Source: a virus (lineage: Duplodnaviria; Caudoviricetes). Taken from it: a DNA stretch of 64,000 nucleotides. Of the stretch, positions 3,237 to 51,894 are shown piece after piece. The translations under genes and the position numbers were made by a program. The stretch is taken from the IMG/VR virus record IMGVR_UViG_3300018475_000104, positions 32,001 to 96,000 of that record. The stretch is one strand, 5' to 3'. Below the pieces are notes generated by a model that was given only the letters and a program-made list of their open reading frames with translations, did not search any database and was not told where the DNA came from. Within the stretch, counting starts at the first letter, position 1; the number at the start of each line of letters is the position of its first letter.

Positions 3237-5582
3237 ATGAATTTAACTCCTATTATAAAAGACTCCTTCGCGCAATATTCTGGCGCCGTCCTTCAATCTC
3301 GCGCACTTCCCGATGTGCGCGATATGCTGAAGCCTTCGGCGCGACAAATTTTCTATTGCCTTTATACAGATAAATTCACTCACAATAAACCCTTTAAGAA
3401 AACCCTAAAGGCTATTGGTAGTGCAATGCGTATGTATATCCATGGCGATAGTTCGTGCGAAGGAATTATAATGCGAGCTTCGCAAGATTTTGCTATGAGA
3501 TATCCTTTCGTAGAAGTGGAAGGTTCTAACGGCGACCCTGTCCTAAGCGGTAACTGGTCTGCGCCTCGTTATACTTCTTCAAGACTATCCCAACTGGCAA
3601 ATTACTTGTTTGAAGATATAGAGAAAAATACCATTAACGAGTGGCGAGATAATTATGACGATACAGAACAGTATCCTGCCATTCTCCCCACAAAGGGCTT
3701 TTATGGAATTGTTAATGGCGGTATGGGCATCGGTGTAGGTGCAGCTTTTAGTTGCCCGCAATTTAACATCAAAGATGTCAATGCCGCACTTGAAAAACTA
3801 CTCGACAATCCAGATATTGACTTTGAGGAGATTTATTGCGCGCCGGACTTTGCGAGTGGCGCAATTCTTCTTAATGAGTCCGAAGTAAAAGAAAGCCTTA
3901 AAAAGGGAACTGGACTTGCTTGTAAGTTGCGGTCTGTTGTATCTTTTGATTCAACTGAAAGATGTTTAATTGCAACAGAAATTCCTTATGGGGTTTATAC
4001 AAGCACCATTTGCGGTGAACTTGATAAAATTCTTGAGGATGAAGCCAACCCTGGTGTAGATAGGTATAATGACCTAACCAAGGGAACTCCTATCATCAAA
4101 ATTTATCTCAAACGCGCGGCCAATCCAGATAAGGTGTTGAAGTATTTGTATAAGAATACTTCTCTCCAATCTCATTTTGGTATCAATCTCACAATGCTTG
4201 AAAATGGTCGTTTCCCCAAAGTGTTTGGTTGGAAAGAAGCTCTTCAAGCTCATATTGACCATGAGAAGGTAGTTTATCGTAGAGGTTACGAATTTGATTT
4301 AAACAAGATAGAACAGCGAATCCATATTATTGATGGTTTGTTTATTTGTCTTGCCCAAATCGAAGAAGTAATTCAAACAATCAAATCCTCTGTTTCAACT
4401 ACTGCCGCAAATAAGGCTTTGTGTGAGAAGTTCCTTCTTGATGAAGCACAGGCAAAAGCAGTTTTGGATATGAAACTTTCTCGTTTGGCTCATTTGGAAG
4501 TAGAAAAAATTGAGAAAGAGAAAGAAGAATTAGAAAAAGAAGCCGCCAAGATAAAAGAACTTTTGAGTAATACTGTTTTATTTAACGAACAACTCAAACT
4601 TGGTTGGCGCGAAGTGGCTAAAAAATTTGGTGACGCGCGCAGAACTAAAGTAATGAATTTGGTCGTTAATGAAGAGGAACCCACCGAAGTTCGTCAACTC
4701 ATTCTGAACTTCACCAACCACGGGAACATTTTTATCTCTGAAAGCTCTACTCTTTATACACAAAAGCGTGGTGGAGTAGGAACCAAGTTTAAGCTTGATA
4801 AGGGAGAATATGTTGTTTCCGCAAAGATTGGTGATAGTACAGATACTGTGCTTTTCTTCTCCAATAAAGGTAACTTCTATCATGCAAAGATGAATGAGAT
4901 GCCCGTTGGCGAAAAAATTCACACCTCTTCTCTAATCTCAATCCATTCCTATGAAGAGATTCGCGCAGCAACTGTATTGTCTAAAACAGACAAGAAAAAG
5001 TTTATTATCTTTGTCACCAAGCAAGGTATTGTAAAGAAAAGTGAACTTGATGAATACAATGTAAAACGTGGCGGTGGCGCGAAGGCAATTGAACTTCAAG
5101 ATACGGATGAAATTGTATCAACACTTTTTGTTGATGATGAACCTTGTGGTATTCTTACTGCTGAAGGTAACTTGCTACTAATTGAAACAAAGGATATTCG
5201 CGCGATTGGACGTATAGCAAAAGGAGTTAAGGGCATCAAGCTAAACGATGGCGACTATGTTGTCAGCGCGAAAGCATTGCCAGAAGCAACAAAAGAAATC
5301 CTGTCTATTTCGTCCAGCGGCTTATCTAAGCGAACTGACTATTCTGAGTTCTCAATTACTGGCAAGAATACCAAAGGCAAAAAGGTTCAAAAGATTGTTG
5401 ACAAGGACTTCATGGTAGACTTCCTACCTATTGAGTCAAATAATGATGTGGTAGTTGTATCTTCCACCGCGCAGTTGAGAATTTCTCTTGTCGATATTTC
5501 TCTTTTAGGACGTGGCGCGCAAGGCAACAAAACAATTAAACTGAAAGAAAAGGATAGAGTTATCTCTCTCCAAACAGTTTAA
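3237..5582 (+). CDS. gyrA: DNA gyrase/topo IV subunit A with C-terminal pinwheel repeats
   Basis: RALPDVRD.LKP, HGDSS, catalytic APRYT, GyrA-box-like QKRGGVG, repeated GRxxKG blades. Confidence 0.92.
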   Translation: MNLTPIIKDSFAQYSGAVLQSRALPDVRDMLKPSARQIFYCLYTDKFTHNKPFKKTLKAIGSAMRMYIHGDSSCEGIIMRASQDFAMRYPFVEVEGSNGDPVLSGNWSAPRYTSSRLSQLANYLFEDIEKNTINEWRDNYDDTEQYPAILPTKGFYGIVNGGMGIGVGAAFSCPQFNIKDVNAALEKLLDNPDIDFEEIYCAPDFASGAILLNESEVKESLKKGTGLACKLRSVVSFDSTERCLIATEIPYGVYTSTICGELDKILEDEANPGVDRYNDLTKGTPIIKIYLKRAANPDKVLKYLYKNTSLQSHFGINLTMLENGRFPKVFGWKEALQAHIDHEKVVYRRGYEFDLNKIEQRIHIIDGLFICLAQIEEVIQTIKSSVSTTAANKALCEKFLLDEAQAKAVLDMKLSRLAHLEVEKIEKEKEELEKEAAKIKELLSNTVLFNEQLKLGWREVAKKFGDARRTKVMNLVVNEEEPTEVRQLILNFTNHGNIFISESSTLYTQKRGGVGTKFKLDKGEYVVSAKIGDSTDTVLFFSNKGNFYHAKMNEMPVGEKIHTSSLISIHSYEEIRAATVLSKTDKKKFIIFVTKQGIVKKSELDEYNVKRGGGAKAIELQDTDEIVSTLFVDDEPCGILTAEGNLLLIETKDIRAIGRIAKGVKGIKLNDGDYVVSAKALPEATKEILSISSSGLSKRTDYSEFSITGKNTKGKKVQKIVDKDFMVDFLPIESNNDVVVVSSTAQLRISLVDISLLGRGAQGNKTIKLKEKDRVISLQTV

Positions 5583-22802: not shown

Positions 22803-23402
22803 ATGAAATTTACCGATATTGTTTCAAATGTAAAAATTTATGATTTAGAAGAATCAATTATCGCAAGTGGCTATCCTATGAGAACTAAAGCTGGTAGGCG
22901 AGAAGTTGAGGAGAAAGATATTAATCGGGGCGAAAAGTTAGTTAGGGCTACCCTTGGCGGTAATACCGCACATCATTAGTTCTTAACAGGTATTAGGGTA
23001 AACTTTGATTTAACTTTTACAAATAAGGCGTGGGTTGAAGCCGAAAGATATAGATTCTTAGAATTTGTTTCAAGCCAATCAACAATGCACAGAATTACTA
23101 AATTCAATTTAGATAATCAGTATATTAAATATGTTGACCCACGAGTTATTAAAATTATGCAAGAGTTGGTTGATGCATACAACGAAAATCCAACTCCAGA
23201 AAATTACTTAAAGGTTCTTTATACAAATCCCGCAGGTTTTAAAATTACTGCGCGCATGACTACAAACTATAGAAGTTTAAGAAATATTTATATTCAAAGA
23301 AAGAATCATAGATTACCTGAATGGCGCGCGTTTTGTAAATGGATTGAAACCTTACCTTTTGCAAAAGAGTTTTTAACTAATATTAATCAAGAAGAGGAAT
23401 AA
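22803..23402 (+). CDS. thyX: flavin-dependent thymidylate synthase-like protein, one in-frame TAG (22977)
   Basis: From ATG 22803: ...AHH*FLTGI...AERYRF...SQSTMHRI...TNYRSL...RKNHRLPEW; in frame with track ORF 23085-23402. Confidence 0.75.
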
Positions 23403-23415: not shown

Positions 23416-23449
23416 AGCCGTGTAGTTTAATGGTAAAACGCCGGTCTCT

Positions 23450-24138
23450 AATTAAAAATTGGACACCAAGAAGGGAAACCGCTTGTGTGAATCGTGTCAA
23501 ATTCGGTAAAACTCTTTAGGAGAATACAATGGCAACAAAAATTTCACTTTTAAGTGACGAAGAATTTTAGAAAATAATTTATGAATCTTATTCCTATGCT
23601 GAATGTTGTAGAAAGATTGGATATAGTGATAAAGGAAGTCATGGCACAGATGCGATAAAGAAAAGATGTCAAGAACTTAACTTGTCTACTAGTCATTTTT
23701 CTAAGACCAAGGCAGCAAATAAAAGTAGCACAAAATATTCTTTAGATGATATATTGATTGAAAATTCTAATTATAAAAACATATCAAGATTAAAAACTCG
23801 ACTAATCAATGAAAACAAACTTGAATATAAATGTGCTATATGTGGTAATACTGGAGAATGGAATAATAATCCCCTAGTTCTTCAATTAGACCATATTAAT
23901 GGAAAACACAACGACCATCGTTTAGAAAATCTAAGATTCTTATGTCCTAACTGTCATTCTCAAACAGAAACATATTCTGGAAAAAATAAAAATAAAGACA
24001 ATACCGAGCTAAATCAGTAAAAAACTGTAAATGTGTAGAGACTAAACGGCACGAACCTAAACCCAATTTGGGCATGGTTAAGATATAGTCCAGACTACAA
24101 CACAAATAATTGTGGCCATGGTGACATGGAGTAGTATG
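23450..24138 (+). ncRNA. group I self-splicing intron in the tRNA anticodon (689 nt)
   Basis: P1 with U.G at the splice site (TCT|AATT-aaa-AATT-GGA); P3 CGTGTC 23493/GGCACG 24048; P4 TTCGGTA 23502/TACCGAG 24002; P7 GACTA 24040/TAGTC 24086 within GTAGAGACTA and AAGATATAGTCC; GNRA-capped P2 and P9; terminal G 24138. Confidence 0.92.
23529..24020 (+). CDS. intron-encoded HNH homing endonuclease, in-frame TAG at codon 14 (23568)
   Basis: TAGGAG SD, MATKISLLSDEEF*KIIYES... in frame with CAICG...LQLDHINGKHNDHRLENLRFLCPNCH. Confidence 0.87.
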
Positions 24139-24225
24139 AAAACCGTAATATCCTTCTGACGGAGGTTATCTGGGTTCGAATCCCAGCACGGCCGCCAATC
24201 AAATATTTTACTGGAGGACAGTCCA

Positions 24226-43680: not shown

Positions 43681-46600
43681 TTACCGTTGTAGTGAAATTG
43701 TGTTTACATTTCGATACATACCATCTTCATAGATATTTTGTTTAATACGTTCACTTAACTGGTCTACATCGTAATCACTACCGATTTCATCAACAATGAT
43801 ATCAATATCAAAGTAGTTGTCGCCGCCTTGTGCGGAAGTTTTTCCGGACATCGCGCCGAGTGCATCGGCCAGGATATCTTTTAGTACGATAAAGTTTTTG
43901 GTGTCTTGTTGGTTTAGAACAAGTTCGGGATGGGATTTTGTTCCGTCTAACCAAGCTGGGCCGGTGAAATCGGCAAGACCGCCGGTTTTGAAGGCTTTAT
44001 ACTTAGCGGATTTCATAACCGCATCATGAGTTTTTGGCCCATAAATACCATCAGCACTTACTCCAACTGCTTTTTGAAGTTTTCTTATTGCAGCAGTTGT
44101 TTTTTCACCAATAATACCATCAATAGAACCGGCATTAAAACCTGCAGCATTTAAGGCTTTTTGAAGTGTTTTTATTTCACTTTTTGTTGTTGGCCGACGT
44201 TTTGAAGCAATAGTTTCTGTTAAAGACTTAAAGTAGCCCTTGTCAGTACCTTCGTTATCGTCAAGGGATGTTGTTCCTCCCTGCTCTCCACCTTGTGTTT
44301 TAGGAGATTCTTTCTTTTTCTCCCCAGCCTCTTCTGCAGTAGTATAATCTCCATTAAACATCTGCACAACGTCTTTATAAGTTTCACCATCTGCAGTTGT
44401 AACACTACCATCTTTATTAACAGTACCAGTTAAAGTCTCGCCTTTACTATTTCTAAAGGTGACAGTTTTACCAGCTATACCATCAATCTTCTCAAGCTAT
44501 CTACTTGAACCTTCTCCTATAATCCAAGCCAAACCACTCATTATAGTTTGTTCAAGATCATCAACCCAAGTAGCTTTTTGTTGTTCAGACATTGATTTCC
44601 AATCGCTATTAGCAGTTAAAAGTTTGCCTAAAGGAGAAGATGGATCAATTTTACCATCATTTTCAACCAGTTGGGCAATTAAATCATGTGCTTGTTCCCA
44701 GAAATATCCGGTTTCTTGCTAATAATCAAGCTAAGATTGCATTATCTCAATCTAACGTTCTCTTTGCTCTGCGGCCTCCTCATTGGCTTTATTTAGTCGT
44801 TCAATTTCTTGGTCAACTAAAGTATCGCCATAAGATTCTCTTGCTTCGGCAAGTTGTTCTTCAAGTTCAAGAATCTCAAGACGATTACCGCTAGAAGTAT
44901 CCGCGCGCAAGTATGCGAGACGAGCTTCCATTTCAGCAATATCTTCTTCTTGTTTTGTATTGTCGCGAATCTAACGCTCTAGGTCAATTGATTCCTGAAG
45001 TGCAGTTAGCATATTAGAAGAAGATTCAGACAAGGTTTCGGAAAGCGTTGAATAATTATCAATTAAAAGTTGTCTATCAGCAACAATTGCATCGTAAACT
45101 TGTTGTTCAAGTTCTTCATAATCTTCACGACCTTGCTCAAGAATCTCAGCAACTTTATCATCGATTTCATAAAGAGTATCTTCTGTTTCTTCGATTTGAC
45201 CAGCAACTTCATCATAACGAGATTTTAAAGCTTCAATTAATGCACCCTGGTCTTCACCAGTTTTTTCATTTTTCTCAATTGCTTCAATTCTGTCCCAGTC
45301 AATCCAAAGCTCTCCGGTTTTCTGGTCATATCCCATGTACTTATCAATTGAGCCAAGTCCAAGACGTTTGAATTCTTCCGCAAAAGTTGTACGGAATTGT
45401 TCCTCTTCATCTCCGTTCCTTTTTGTTGCAATGTAAGATTCATTTGCTAGATTCTTTAGTTGTCTTTTTCTTCCTTCAAGAAGTTCCTTTTGTAAGCTGC
45501 GCTCTCGTTCAAGATTTGCAAGTTGGTCTTTTTGGTTTTCGTAGAGGTCTTTGAAGGTTTTTGTACGATCTTTTAAGATTCGGTCGTAATCAATTTCAAG
45601 TTGATTGCGGTCACGAAGAGTTTCATCAATTTGTTCTTGTTTGTTGTGGAGTTCATCGTAGGGATTTTCCCAGTGCTAAGTTTTTGGCTTCGAGGACCCA
45701 CCTCCGCCACCGCCTTTTTTCTATTTTCCAGCATCTATATTGCCAGTAGAAATTCCTCCTCCACCAGAACCGGTAGAAGTTAAAGTTTTAACAACAGGAA
45801 AATAACCTGTTATACTTTGTGGCTATCCAGTTGTAGTAACAGTATGCCATTTTGTAGGCATTTTACTGCTCGGATCATATTCATCAATAACACGTTCTGT
45901 ATATTCAGAAGGAACCATTCTGGTATCTTTAACATATTCTATTTCTGCATCAAAACCCATTGCTTTAACAGATTCTTGAATCTGTTCAGCCGATAAGTTT
46001 GACGCTGCAGCCATATCGTTAAAGGCATTAATAAATTCTTGTGACCCCTCGCCATTCCACTAGACACCAGCTTCTAAATTAGGAATATCAACCCCTTGTA
46101 TATAGTCTGAAAATTCTTGAATGGCGCTTTTCGCACCCTCAACATCTTCTACTTGTAAGCCTAAGTCTATATTATTTAGATAGTCAGAAGCAGCAGCTTT
46201 TTGTAATGCTTCTAAAGCTTCAGTATCTCCTTCTGCGGCCTTCTTTAGATTATCCATATTCTCTGCATTGTCCCAGAAGGCATCAGATAAATCTTCGGAA
46301 GTATTAAGCATTGTATTAACAGACTTCTTTAATTTATTATACGCTGCGACATCTTCGCTTGAACTTGCTTTTATAGTACCAGTATTTTCGTCAATCAATC
46401 CTGTCCATTCGTCATAAGATTCAATGATTTCACCTAAACCTAGATTCATCTTAGAATTTGCTAAGGCAACCTAAGTCGCAGTTACTTTGTTAAGACCTTC
46501 ATTTATATTTTGAAGATGCTCAGCATAGGCTGTCATTTCATTTACATCGAGACCTGCCTCTATAGCTTCATTTTGCGCACTATAGATTATACTTTCATCG

Positions 46601-49600
46601 CTATGGCCCAACGCCTCTGCTTCAGCCGAGCTATATTTGGCAGCTTCAGCCATCGCGGCAGCCTTTTCCAAAATAGCAGACGTCTCTTCGCCGGTATTTA
46701 AAAGATTAATATAATTATCATAAGCCTATTGAATTCTTGCAATATAAGCCTCATTGGTTTCGTCTTCTCTCTTTCCGTCTTCGCCAAGAACGCCTAGCAT
46801 ACTACCAGCATTTTCAAGAGTAACTTCACCGCCAATCAGTTTGCCATTATCATCAACAGAAGTTATCCCACCTAAACCTTTGTCTGTAATAGAAAACCGC
46901 CCAGTTTCTTCATCATAAATAATATTATCAGTTACATTGCTAATAGCAGCTTCATAGGCTTTATTATGTCGAGTTAAAGTATTCTCCGCATTTATTGCGT
47001 TCTACTCTTTTAATTTTTCTGTAGCAACTTCAATTTCTTCTGCTGAGGCCTACCAGCCTTCAGCAGTTAATTGAAAATTACTAATATCTACACCGGCCTC
47101 AACCAAATATTGAACATCTTCATAAGTCCCTTTTCCATCTGATAGGCGGCTCTCAATTTCGGAAATTCCTATAAGTTTTTGCTGGAACCTCTCTGTTAAA
47201 TTTAATGCCTAACCAATACTTGTAACAAAAGCATTGGCGCCTCCGGTTGCTTTTTCCCAAAAATTCTATACTTCAGTAGTATCAAAGCCCTAAGTCTATA
47301 AATATTCCATGGCTTCTACTGCCTAAGACATGTCTGACCAGTCGACAGTAGACAGATAATTACTTAAAACATTTTTTGCATTTCCCGACTTCTAAGACAC
47401 TACTTGTTCAAACTCTTTGAGATAGTCTTCAGTAGCCTATTTAGATAAATTTTGAGTTTGTTTAGCTAAATTTGATAAAAGTGCAGGAGAAATTTCTGAA
47501 AGGAAGCCAGAGTCTACAAGTATACCCTTATTATTAAAAGCTTTTGTAGCTTCTGTTTTAACCTAAGTAATCTATTCTTGAAATTTCTAATCCTCTAAAA
47601 ATAGCTAAGCCTCTAGAGAAATAACTTCTCCTTTTTGTTCTTGTTCTGTTATATAACTATTAATATTTTCATCTGTTATTTCTTCTGGTTTTTTACCTTC
47701 TTTTTCCAAGGCAAAGCGTGCAACTGCTTTTTGTTCAGTATCACTCAAATCCTCAAAGAAAGTCATATCATATCCTAAATTTTCTCTAATTGCCGCTTCA
47801 GCTTCTGAACCTTCACCATAGATCTTTGTAAGAAGCTCATATTGAGAAGTTCCTTCCAAAGCCTTTAATTCTCCCATTGATAGCTTAGAAGTGTCCTTTG
47901 ATATAAAAGCAGATAACTGTTTCTATTCTTCATCAGTTAATTTTTCCTGCATTGCTAGTCTGAATTCTTCTAATTTTGCTACTTTTTCCTCTGTCTTTAG
48001 AGCATACGCTATAGCCTTAGACATCTCTTTATAATTACCTTCAATTTCAGCAGGAATTTCAGAGACTTTCATTACATCTTTATATAAAGCTTCTATCTGC
48101 TAATTTTCATTGCCAACAACGTCTAAATCTCGTGATTCCATCAGCTCTTTTCTTTTCGCATCTTCTGAGCCTGAAGATTCAGTATTATAAATTTCGTCAT
48201 AAACATAATCATCAATATAAGTACTATATTCTTCTTCTGACATTGGCTGAGCAAAACTACTAATAATTGCATCAGAATATTCATAATTAAGAGTCTCTTG
48301 AGACGCAGCAGTAGTTAATAATCCCTCTGTCATTGCCAAATTAGTGCTTTCAGCAGCCAATACTGCAGAAGTATAAGAAGTTAAAGCTCCTTCTAAAGTA
48401 GCAAGATGCATAGCAGTTTGAGAAGAACCATTAGCTAGTTTTAATAGATCTTCATTAAAAACCTTAATCGTATCATTGTCTTTGAAAAATAAATCAGGTC
48501 GATTGGTATAACCATAACTATCTAAAACTTTATTTTGTTCTTCTTGGGATAATTTTGAAAACTCTTCTTCAGTTAATTCTTTAGATGAAAAGATGGCAGG
48601 ATTCTTTTTAAAACTATTTATAATAGTCTCTAATGGAATACCAGCATTTATTAATAATTTTTCATACTCTTCAGTTAAATTTTCTTTTTCTCCGCCAGCA
48701 CTTAGATTAGTTTGACGTACTTGATTCATTATTAAAGAAGCATTAGCAGCTTTTATACCTTTCTCTTGATCAGCAAGTACTTTTTCAAAGCCCTCATCAC
48801 TAATAACTAGTTGTCCATCTTCGCCTCTAGATAGATACTCAGCTAATTTAGGATAAGTATTTAAAAGTTGTAAAACTTGATTGTTTGCTTCAAGCAAGGC
48901 TTGCTTCCATTCATTTGTTCCCTTTGTTAAACCTTCAAGTGTTTTTTGAAGTTCATTAAATTCGTCTCTATCCTATAATAAATTATCATATTCTTCTTTT
49001 GCGGCTTTTGCAGACTATTCTGCCGCATCAGTGGCTTTTTTTGCTGCTTCAAGTTTTCCTTCTAGAGAATTAGCATAATCAGCTTTAAAAGTATTAATTA
49101 ATATGCCAGCTAAAACTCCTAGTGCCGCGACCACTCCAATAATCCAACCAATAACAGGAATAGATACTATTGATGTTGTAACGCTAGATGAAAAAATTTG
49201 TGCGGCAACCTAAACTACCTAAAAAATAACTGGTAAGGTCATTAAAGCTACACCAATTGCTTTTATTACAGTAGTAACTTCTTCTCCAACTCCCAAAGAT
49301 TCCAATCCTTCCGCAGCAATCATTAACAGTCCACCTACTGTTGCCGCGGCTTGACCCATAGTATCCATGGATGCCCCAAACTTATTTAACGTTGCTCCAG
49401 CCTAAGCCGCTTCTTTTCCAGTTAGCTAAATTTGCTTCCCCGTGCCTTCCAAAGCTTTATTAATACCATCTACATCTAAAGAATCCCCAGATAGACTACT
49501 TCGAATTTTATCATTTATCTCTTCTGAAAGGCCCATGCCACTAACCTATGTTAAAATATTCTCTTTTAGGGCCGTCATGCCTTCTGGCTTTACATTTTCA

Positions 49601-51894
49601 AAATTTAATGAGTTTAAATCAAAAATTTTAGTATAGTTTTTTTCTAAAATTGGTACACCTTTTTTAATACCAATAGCATTTAAAAGACTCTCTTTAAAAC
49701 CTTTTTCTTTTATTCCTGTAATTTTTGCTTTTATTCCATTAACTAAATTTTTTCCAATACCTTCTCCTTCTTTTTGGGCTTCTTTTCTTACATAACCCAT
49801 ACTCTTTAAAATACTGTCAAATGGACCAGCCTAACCTTTCCCACCTAATAGGCCTCTGCCAATTTTAAAAGCACTTAAAAGACCCATGGCTGTTACAAAG
49901 GTTTTTACTATACCACTTCCGCCAGATAAAGTATCTATTATTTTATTAAGTGTTTCTAAAAGAAAAGTTAGAGTTTCAACTCCAGCCTTTAATAAGTCAC
50001 TATTAAATAGTCCCATAATAAAAGTATCCCAAGCATTCTTTAACTCATTCAACTTTGAATCTAGACTATCTAGTGTTTTATTAAATTGTTCAGTACTTGC
50101 GCCAGCACTATTATTTGCCGCATTTGTTAATTCAACAGTTCTTTCGTAGTCGCTCATCATAGCAATAAAACGAGACTGTTGTCTTGAACCTGCCGCAGTT
50201 GTGGCAATATATCTCTGTGTCTCAAAATCAAGTGTATCCCACTTTTCAGCAAGACGCAATAATACATCCTCTAAACCTTCAGTACCCTTAAAGAAGTCAT
50301 CCATCGAAATTCCAACTGTTCTTAAAGCAGTTTGAATTTTATTTACATCAATAACTTCTCCTTCTTCATCTTCACCAGTACTCTGCCCTTCATTAGCTAA
50401 TTTTTTAACTTCTGAAAAACGAGCAATAATTGTCTTTAATGCAGTACCAGCAGTTTCAGGAGCTTCTTGGGTTGTTTCAATAATCTGTGCTAATAGTGCC
50501 GCAGTATTTTCAAACTCCATATTAGCACTTGATGCGATTGAAGCAGTTTTAGACATAGCTGTGGCAATTTGGGAAGTATCAGCCGCAGTAATAGCCGCCA
50601 ATTCTGAATAAACATCATTAACGGTTTGTGCGTTCATTTCATTTACTTCCATATTAAAACCACGTAGCGCCGCAGTCATTGCAGTGGTTGCTTCAGTAGC
50701 ATCCATGTTAGCAATGCGCGCCATCTTCATGGTTTCAACACCAACGCCCATAGCTTCATTAGTCTTTAAGCCTTGCTGATAGTATAGAGTGGTTGCACCA
50801 TATAAATCATTAATACGCGCGCCAAGCTAAGAAGCTTCTTGCGAATATTGTGGAAGTTTTCCCCACATATCCCCAACAGAAAACTCTGTAACTACAGCAG
50901 CCTCTGTCATTGTAGCGTCTAATTCTTTTACCGTTTCAAGGGCAGAATTAACAGCTCTTTTAAAAAGCTAAACAGCATTTCCAATTGAGAAAAAGTTTAA
51001 AATAGAGTTCTTTAAATGATCAACATCCTAAGCAGTTTTATTTAAAGAATTTGCAGTATCTACACTAGTCTTTCCAAAATTTTCAGCACTCTGGCGTGCC
51101 ATTTCCATTTTTTCTTTTAGGTCTGGAAATTGAGCTATAAATTCATCCAATCTTTTCTAAGCTAAATTTTCAATTAAATTTGAAATATTTGCAATATCTG
51201 CTTTCGCGCCTTCAACGTCTCCACTATTAGCAAAATTTGTAAGAGAGGTTTGTAACTCTTGAATTTGCTTTAAATACTCTTTTGCCGCAGTGTGTTCAGC
51301 ACTTCCTGTTTTTTCTCCTTTCTCAAGCTTTGTTAATGTTGCCTTCGCAGTAGATTCAAGAGTTTTTAAAGCCTTTTCTGCGGCAGGAATATCATTTTCT
51401 GCTATCGCTTTTATAAAATTTTGGCTTGAAATACCACCTTTTTTGCCAAAGTCCTGTAGTATCTAAGACATCTTGGCCGAAAAGCCTTTAAATTGATCAC
51501 CATTTAATAAAGTTGTAAGTCTCTATTGAGCATTAGCCAGTTGCTTATTTAGTTCTTCAAGCTCTTTTGGATTAACCTAAAAAGAATCTCTAAGCATTCC
51601 AGGGCTAATCTGATTAGCCTGCTGCTAAAGCTAAAACATTAATTGATTAATCTTTTGATAGCTCTTTTCTAAAGCAGTAACGTCCCCTTGTTTTTTAAAA
51701 CCAGAAGTCATTAGCCCCTAAATCTTACTTGTCTCTTTTTCAATTCCATCAAAAGTTTTTGTAAAACTTGTTTTTAATTTGTCTGGTAGCTTTAAACTAT
51801 TAATCGCACTTTGAATTGCACCAACATTACTAGTAATATCTTTTATGTCGCTGACCATCTTCAAAGTAACTTGAATTGTTTGTTTATCTGCCAT
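43681..51894 (-). CDS. tape measure protein (~2,737 aa) with C-terminal peptidoglycan-binding domain; more than 20 in-frame TAGs
   Basis: Nine track fragments share one frame; TMP core (TAALRGF, AGTALKTIIARF, AGSRQQSRF); PG-binding LQKALN...DGIIGEKT...DGIYGPKT. Confidence 0.85.

Follow-up and report, generated by a model that had tools for sequence, protein, structure and literature searches.

A candidate amber suppressor tRNA, split by a group I-like intron and carrying a glutamine-type second anticodon-like arm, in a TAG-recoded gut phage

We found a split tRNA gene in a siphovirus-like, TAG-recoded gut phage (source record 109.5 kb, CheckV completeness 89%), located within the 64 000-nt stretch of this record that was analyzed and that is called the window below. 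Joined, its two exons (23416-23449 and 24139-24197) yield a 93-nt cloverleaf with the anticodon CUA (ARAGORN, run on the spliced sequence, returns tRNA(cta)), and its variable region folds into a second arm that presents a copy of a glutamine anticodon loop. The account we consider probable is that the phage owns a single, intron-split glutamine suppressor with a body of the tRNA-Gln type and a Gln loop in its second arm, which would be charged by the glutaminyl-tRNA synthetase (GlnRS) of the host. Taking this further, the molecule may represent an undescribed design of stop-reassignment tRNA, in which arm 1 decodes the stop codon while arm 2 serves as a handle for the synthetase, perhaps in a bistable manner, and which in this phage is additionally gated by an intron; for this wider reading we see the chances as evenly balanced. 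The gene is organized as follows (window coordinates).

23416-23449, plus strand: 5' exon of tRNA(CUA), from A1 to U35 (acceptor strand AGCCGUG, D arm, 5' strand of the anticodon stem, C32, U33, C34 and U35)
23450-24138, plus strand: group I-like intron of 689 nt, which splits the anticodon between U35 and A36
23447-23453 with 23457-23463, plus strand: P1 of the intron, containing a U35.G23461 wobble
23503-23508 (P), 24002-24007 (Q), 24035-24046 (R), 24080-24091 (S) and 24138 (terminal G), plus strand: core elements of the intron, as read from the sequence
23529-24020, plus strand: open reading frame of 163 aa for an HNH homing endonuclease (phrog_10822 HNH endonuclease, E = 1e-52)
24139-24146, plus strand: start of the 3' exon, with A36, A37, A38 and the 3' strand of the anticodon stem (ACCGU)
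24147-24169, plus strand: variable region and second arm, with the stem UCC (24151-24153) and GGA (24161-24163) and the loop UUCUGAC (24154-24160)
24170-24197, plus strand: T arm (CUGGG-UUCGAAU-CCCAG) and 3' end, with CACGGCC, G73 (24194) and an encoded CCA (24195-24197)

The spliced tRNA has an A1xC72 mismatch, followed by G2-C71 and C3-G70, and ends with G73 and the encoded CCA; the features A1, G73, G2-C71 and A1xC72, which a preliminary description of the locus had read from the letters, are thus all present. Its anticodon arm is CCGGU-CUCUAAA-ACCGU, where the U at position 43 turns 27-43 into a C.U pair. The gene is easily overlooked: neither ARAGORN with default settings nor Rfam at its gathering threshold gave a match in the whole window, and ARAGORN with introns allowed reported a single tRNA at 23416-24197 with a misplaced splice site, labelled His. 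The exon junction is fixed by homologues that lack the intron. Both exon matches are contiguous in the tRNA-Sup-CTA of Phage Phass-1, and two intron-less metagenomic tRNAs (L266 and L306) are collinear with the spliced molecule, each being 84% identical over 93 nt. Other searches were empty: neither the spliced junction nor the 5' exon was matched in exact-pattern scans of viral contigs (0 matches), a synteny search of the surroundings of the neighbouring ThyX-like gene in 80 IMG/VR loci found no tRNA(CUA) homologue beside that gene, no tRNAs were seen in the flanks of tape-measure homologues, a search for related loci from one late protein returned 0 relatives, and promoter and terminator scans around the tRNA(CUA) gene performed no better than on shuffled sequences. 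The tRNA(CUA) is the sole detectable amber suppressor in this phage genome, and no tRNA-Gln gene occurs among the phage's own tRNAs. Three of the eight tRNAs of this phage are interrupted, tRNA(CUA) among them; the other two split genes lie upstream of the window on the minus strand (G000:C1:571-1135 and 3367-4166), with introns of ~487 and ~714 nt (ARAGORN, introns allowed).

The intron boundaries at 23450 and 24138 were placed by the rules for group I introns, i.e. a U.G wobble in P1 and a terminal G, both of which are found here. P1 is made up of the exon bases U33-C34-U35 together with the first four bases of the intron, which pair with 23457-23463, and the core contains TCGGTA/TACCGA, GTAGAGACTAAA and AAGATATAGTCC. 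The Rfam model Intron_gpI (RF00028) scores 22.1 bits (E = 0.0036), which is below its gathering score of 50, with an alignment that is distorted by the inserted open reading frame. The intron is classified as group I-like by its anatomy, not by the Rfam threshold, and is predicted to be of the self-splicing type. The HNH open reading frame sits between the elements P and Q and contains an in-frame TAG at codon 14 (23568-23570), so that the full-length enzyme needs the very suppressor that its own intron interrupts. As part of the evenly balanced reading given above, the intron may therefore act as a gate: the suppressor anticodon would come into being only after splicing, and the endonuclease of the intron would itself depend on the suppressor.

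The distribution of TAG codons in the window is uneven. A replication block on the plus strand is devoid of TAG, and a late block on the minus strand is open only if TAG is read through. The tape-measure gene of this late block (43681-51894, minus strand; 2737 aa) contains 44 in-frame TAGs. In a comparison with the DNA of 80 IMG/VR relatives, of which 65 are free of in-frame stops in that gene, the conserved TAG columns 309, 2308, 2381 and 2388 were found to be occupied by genuine CAA or CAG codons in 43-53 of the stop-free relatives. Glutamine is enriched at the conserved TAG columns; serine, leucine, tyrosine and tryptophan are not, and these alignments rule out a reading of TAG as one of the latter four. 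A second line of evidence comes from the ThyX-like gene just upstream of the tRNA (22803-23402), where codon 59 (22977-22979) is TAG; at this position the 80 relatives have Gln in 63 cases, TAG in 14 and Asn in 3. Throughout 13 late genes, TAG makes up 108 of 385 inferred glutamine codons (28%), 9 early genes contain none, and TAG does not serve as the terminator in any of the 13 late or 9 early genes. These comparisons indicate that TAG means glutamine in this phage, and the earlier proposal of an amber suppressor with TAG = Gln is supported by the CAA and CAG codons that standard-code relatives use at TAG columns. Recoding of TAG to glutamine (code 15) is already known for gut phages (Borges et al., 10.1101/2021.08.26.457843). 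Two side observations belong here: opposite TAG codon 2392 of the tape-measure gene, 97 of 119 protein homologues have Trp, which makes it the only TAG column with such a non-Gln majority, and the TAG of the ThyX-like gene is the single one in that gene, on an otherwise TAG-free strand.

The second arm became apparent when a Gln profile, aligned to the spliced tRNA, placed its own anticodon loop on the variable region. The 23 nt of this region form a hairpin in which UCC/GGA closes the 7-nt loop UUCUGAC, with U33, CUG (24156-24158) and A37 in the positions of an anticodon loop. By a pattern scan on the anticodon-arm core GGUCUCUAAAACC we collected 114 unique phage CUA tRNAs, 30 of them with long variable regions, and 24 of these 30 have an N-U-(C/U)-U-G loop. 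Counted over unique arms, the triplet is CUG in 23 and UUG in 4, and one further arm reads CCCUGAA. As a control, ~110 sense tRNAs with long arms from the same loci were examined, and none has the same Gln-type loop; the lone apparent match was a mis-called CUA tRNA. U33, U35 and G36 are invariant in all 27 arms, position 34 is filled by C (23 arms) or U (4 arms), and position 37 is a purine in 24 of the 27. The stems, on the other hand, covary (UCC/GGA, UGC/GCA, AGC/GCU, CCA/UGG, CUC/GAG, CAC/GUG). In the alignment of these arms (A4), 87% of cells are paired and compensatory changes are found at 4 of 6 pairs; the covariation score of 0.277 compares with 0.072 in shuffles (0 of 500 reach the observed value), and registers slid along the alignment give at most 0.05. 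The minimum-free-energy fold of the unmodified transcript favours a 4-nt loop in arm 2; covariation favours the 7-nt register. Arm 2 is a copy of the Gln anticodon loop (N-U-C/U-U-G-A-N), in which the loop is conserved while the stem covaries. The preliminary description had overlooked the variable region as a carrier of identity, although the copy of the Gln anticodon loop lies there.

Some further features of the long-armed tRNAs were noted. The fourth pair of arm 2 (A4 columns 12/26; window 24150/24164) is non-canonical in 12 of 17 cases, mostly with A opposite G, and is A.G in 14 of 21 unique arms. The phage arrays (L182, L298, L192, L271, L292, L272 and others) also contain sense tRNAs with long arms in isotypes that normally do not have them, i.e. 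Trp(CCA), Cys(GCA), Gln(UUG), Thr, Gly, Ile, Met, Val and His; a screen of the loops of those sense arms for the Gln-type motif found none. ARAGORN labels the CUA members (L161-L305) as tRNA-Pyl and two-armed opal suppressors (L380-L458) as tRNA-SeC, and it reads one CUA member (L211) with a 4-base anticodon; wrong labels of this sort may keep the family out of sight in annotated phage genomes.

The opal suppressors just mentioned come from an independent test, a scan for UCA tRNAs with long variable regions, which gave 50 unique genes. In 36 of them a second hairpin is present whose loop, N-U-C-C-A-N-N, contains the Trp anticodon CCA; the remaining 14 look like tRNA-Sec. The stems of these opal second arms comprise ~4-7 pairs (5 or 6 being common) and covary as well. 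Their bodies are of the Trp type, mostly beginning AGGGG... with G3-C70, and the nearest neighbour was Trp for 17 of 32. On many contigs with such two-armed opal tRNAs the coding density rises when TGA is read through. In both families, the suppressor anticodon sits in arm 1, while the triplet of arm 2 is a sense anticodon for the inserted amino acid and tracks the recoding (CUG or UUG with CUA, CCA with UCA).

We then asked which type of tRNA the rest of the molecule belongs to. The body, stripped of both anticodon-type arms and of the variable region, was compared with ~800 labelled reference tRNAs; of its five nearest neighbours four are Gln and one is Gly, and across 23 family members the nearest neighbour is Gln in 12 and Trp in 2, in a comparison whose ~55 positions carry a weak phylogenetic signal. 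Isotype HMMs built from phage tRNAs and applied to the whole tRNA end in a three-way tie (Gln 31.8, Ser 31.6 and Trp 31.1 bits). For a closer comparison, tRNA-Trp and tRNA-Gln were gathered from genomes of the order of one metagenome-assembled genome (MAG) that holds a family member. Host-order tRNA-Gln(CUG) has U1 or A1, G2-C71, C3-G70 (24 of 24), G73 or A73, the T arm CUGGGUUCGAAUCCUAG and the anticodon loop CUCUGAC, whereas host-order tRNA-Trp has A1-U72, G3-C70 (17 of 17), another T arm and the anticodon arm CCGGU-CUCCAAA-ACCGU. The T arm of tRNA(CUA) is 0.88 identical to that of host-order tRNA-Gln(CUG) versus 0.63 to that of tRNA-Trp, and the D arm 0.73 versus 0.61; for the anticodon arm the values are 0.57 to tRNA-Gln(CUG) and 0.89 on average, up to 1.00, to tRNA-Trp. 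The latter likeness is not specific for Trp, as the arm is also 0.93 identical to arms in Cys, Ser, Tyr and Phe tRNAs. All of these read codons starting with U, and their sharing of the arm fits Yarus's idea of an extended anticodon. As judged from sequence, tRNA(CUA) is a mosaic with a Gln-type body, a mutated tRNA-Trp is not supported, and its ancestry call is corrected from Trp-derived. Host-order tRNA-Gln(CUG) itself (L350-L379) has A73 in a third of the 24 sequences and A1-U72 in five, and it departs from the E. coli GlnRS identity set (G3-C70, G73, U1-A72).

The origin proposed originally was that of a natural Su+7, i.e. a tRNA-Trp changed by C35U and mischarged by GlnRS through U35, G73 and a weak 1-72 pair, with a long arm that is incidental. 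We regard this as unlikely, although much of its background is sound: E. coli K-12 trpT does have A1, G73 and CCGGUCUCCAAAACCGG, charging of amber tRNA-Trp by GlnRS is documented (PMC2965240, PMC9976931), and the weak 1-72 pair, G2-C71 and G73 recur across the CUA family. Over positions 8-42 the family members come close to identity with E. coli trpT (33 of 35 in L246), the best bacterial BLAST matches to positions 12-43 of L266 are tRNA-Trp (91%), A1 and G73 are compatible with Trp, and tRNAscan typed 19% of phage tRNA-Sup genes as Trp (PMC10879173). The resemblance of the anticodon arm to that of E. coli tRNA-Trp stands apart from C35U, but it is an imperfect copy owing to U43 and the C.U at 27-43 (ACCGU with U43 is likewise found in host-order tRNA-Trp). 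Against a Trp origin speaks the remainder of the molecule. A tRNA of the Su+7 type would combine the acceptor stem A1-U72, G2-C71, G3-C70 and G73 with a body clustering with Trp; here the body clusters with Gln and the T and D arms are nearer Gln, while the anticodon arm, which does agree with tRNA-Trp apart from position 35, is found in Cys, Ser, Tyr and Phe tRNAs too. The 3-70 pair is C-G as in all host-order tRNA-Gln rather than G-C as in all their tRNA-Trp, most of the CUA family has U at position 1, A1 and G73 also occur in host-order tRNA-Gln(CUG), and BLAST matches to positions 63-93 of L266 are tRNA-Gln(CUG). Moreover, genuine Trp-bodied two-armed tRNAs are different, with AGGGG..., G3-C70 and UCA plus CCA. 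Isotype scoring and clustering had been suggested as a check on the Trp proposal; the scores tie between Gln, Ser and Trp, and the body groups with Gln, the outcome that the preliminary description had itself counted against a Trp tRNA mutated to CUA.

In the explanation that we prefer, a suppressor with a Gln-type body, removal of the group I-like intron would give the 93-nt tRNA, and with it UAG would be read as glutamine. The molecule is a member of a widespread phage tRNA family in which two anticodon-type hairpins stand in tandem. Arm 1 presents CUA at the canonical position, within an anticodon arm typical of tRNAs that read U-starting codons, and acceptor stem, D arm and T arm are of the tRNA-Gln(CUG) type of Oscillospirales-type Bacillota. 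The charging enzyme and the role of arm 2 we infer as follows. The phage record contains no GlnRS or GluRS catalytic domain, GlnRS anticodon-binding domain, GatB/YqeY domain or release factor, and no aminoacyl-tRNA synthetase was found in it; because the phage has no such enzyme of its own, the GlnRS of the host would charge tRNA(CUA). Oscillospirales-type Bacillota are taken as the candidate host order on the strength of phage-like contigs in MAGs and of the Phass-1 paper: five further family members were found on phage-like contigs binned into Bacillota-type MAGs, in agreement with the Clostridia host proposed for Phass-1 (PMC10607447). A GlnRS-type anticodon-binding domain was detected in 88 of 121 genomes of this order, in open reading frames of ~555 aa. 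Of the two sources named earlier, a host or a phage GlnRS, the host enzyme is plausible from this marker and the phage has none. That host GlnRS charges TAG suppressors was suggested earlier (Borges et al., 10.1101/2021.08.26.457843), and 28 of 29 phage CUA tRNAs insert glutamine in E. coli extract (preprint 10.1101/2025.10.30.685624).

The major determinants of GlnRS are U35 and G36, and its identity set also includes the 1-72 and 3-70 pairs and the discriminator (PMC9976931). The loss of G36 from arm 1 would in part be offset by the Gln-type acceptor end with its weak or mismatched 1-72 pair. This pair is mismatched in about half of the CUA family (it is always paired in host-order tRNA-Gln), which fits the need of GlnRS to open it. 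Arm 2 might offset the loss as well: its U35-G36 would be offered to GlnRS, with the arm working as a tethered handle or trading positions with arm 1. GlnRS, a monomeric class I enzyme, approaches the tRNA in its E. coli complex from the side that faces away from the variable region, so that it is doubtful on geometric grounds whether arm 2 could be reached in the canonical L-shape. It also counts against recognition of arm 2 by GlnRS that the pseudo-anticodon engineered into a variable arm by Mukai et al. was exploited by means of an extra anticodon-binding domain fused to HisRS variants (PMC7590224).

The loop of arm 2 could alternatively be a second working anticodon, so that a bistable tRNA would read UAG as well as CAG and CAA and be charged while arm 2 is docked. 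U33 is kept in all 27 arms and a purine at position 37 in 24 of them, as decoding needs, in many opal members a second stem of 5 bp carries a 7-nt loop and leads into a linker of 4 nt similar to a class I variable loop, and the phage itself is without a tRNA-Gln gene. The second stems, however, range from 2 to 7 pairs over the two families taken together, which suits a handle better than an arm measured by the ribosome; in this tRNA there are only 3 Watson-Crick pairs followed by A.G, and L310 has a two-armed tRNA in addition to ordinary tRNA-Gln(CUG) and tRNA-Gln(UUG) genes. We consider dual decoding improbable on these grounds.

A further possibility is indirect charging, in which a non-discriminating GluRS and then GatCAB would act on the tRNA, with arm 2 and the state of 1-72 serving those enzymes. 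GlnRS is absent from many Bacillota; the marker had no match in 33 of the 121 host-order genomes and in 3 of the 5 MAGs holding family members, nor in the B. subtilis and L. lactis controls. On the other side, most genomes of the candidate order do have the marker, and phage CUA tRNAs gain glutamine in an E. coli extract, which contains GlnRS. The U1-A72 pair is used by GatCAB; about half of the CUA family has a mismatch or another change there. Taken together, we rate the indirect route as quite improbable. Least tenable is a class II tRNA whose long arm confers Ser, Leu or Tyr identity, with TAG read accordingly, or is a neutral leftover: G73, G2-C71 and the long arm do resemble tRNA-Ser, the Ser profile is level with Gln and Trp, and ARAGORN draws a class II cloverleaf, but this identity is rejected by the alignments, which place Gln, not Ser, Leu or Tyr, at TAG, and by a 1-72 pair that is not G-C (phage tRNA-Ser has G1-C72 in 43 of 45), and the loop of the arm is selected while its stem covaries, with 0 sense class II tRNAs having such a loop.

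The literature on phage recoding leaves open how a tRNA that reads a stop codon gets its amino acid from a host synthetase that checks the anticodon, and a second arm that tracks the reassigned amino acid (Gln or Trp) offers a concrete and testable answer. If true, it would be a natural uncoupling of identity from decoding, a step so far achieved in engineered systems alone. The failure of gene finders to report many phage suppressors, or to label them correctly (they appear as tRNA-Pyl, as tRNA-SeC or, with an intron, as nothing), would then be accounted for as well, and two-armed suppressors could supply new scaffolds for the expansion of the genetic code. Our literature search found no paper describing a natural second anticodon-like arm.

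Among known systems, the allo-tRNAs of Mukai et al. 2020 (PMC7590224) are also amber suppressors with a variable arm that imitates the cognate anticodon arm; they are synthetic and have His identity, whereas the phage two-armed tRNAs are natural and no matching change of an enzyme is known. With E. coli supE our tRNA shares a Gln-type body and the change of G36 to A36; supE is charged by GlnRS despite the lost G36, as the phage tRNA would be. The variable loop of supE, however, is 5 nt long and its anticodon stem is that of tRNA-Gln, in place of the U-codon-type anticodon arm and the separate CUG-loop hairpin seen here. E. coli Su+7/supU resembles it as an amber suppressor with an anticodon arm of the CCGGUCUCUAAAACCG type, A1, G73, a weak 1-72 pair and expected glutaminylation; Su+7, however, is a tRNA-Trp body with one base changed, and the phage tRNA departs from it by C3-G70, by a T arm of the Gln type, by the Gln loop on its 23-nt second arm and by a body that clusters with tRNA-Gln. 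The intron is comparable to group I introns of bacterial and phage tRNAs, such as that of cyanobacterial tRNA-Leu(UAA), which likewise are inserted in the anticodon loop and have the P1 U.G, the terminal G and a P/Q/R/S core. Here an HNH homing-endonuclease open reading frame is present as well. The intron differs from them in its insertion between positions 35 and 36 of a suppressor anticodon and in that its endonuclease frame needs TAG read-through; its Rfam score is sub-threshold and its splicing predicted.

The closest relative is the tRNA-Sup-CTA of Phage Phass-1 (OQ749652, 62445-62532; PMC10607447), with 82% identity, the same CUA, anticodon arm and G73, and the same two-arm layout with a CUCUGAA loop, in a phage in which TAG is recoded to Gln and which has no synthetase of its own. 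In that work tRNAscan typed the suppressor as Gln, and the second arm goes unmentioned (PMC10607447). The Phass-1 gene is uninterrupted, has A1-U72 and lies beside a second, short Gln-like suppressor; the gene described here has a 689-nt intron and A1xC72 and is the only suppressor. The family as annotated in Phass-1, the proposal of charging by host GlnRS (Borges et al.) and the Trp-type isotype calls (PMC10879173) are thus already known. Specific to this locus are the interruption of the suppressor anticodon by a group I-like intron, the mismatch A1xC72 and the position of this tRNA as the sole suppressor found in its genome.
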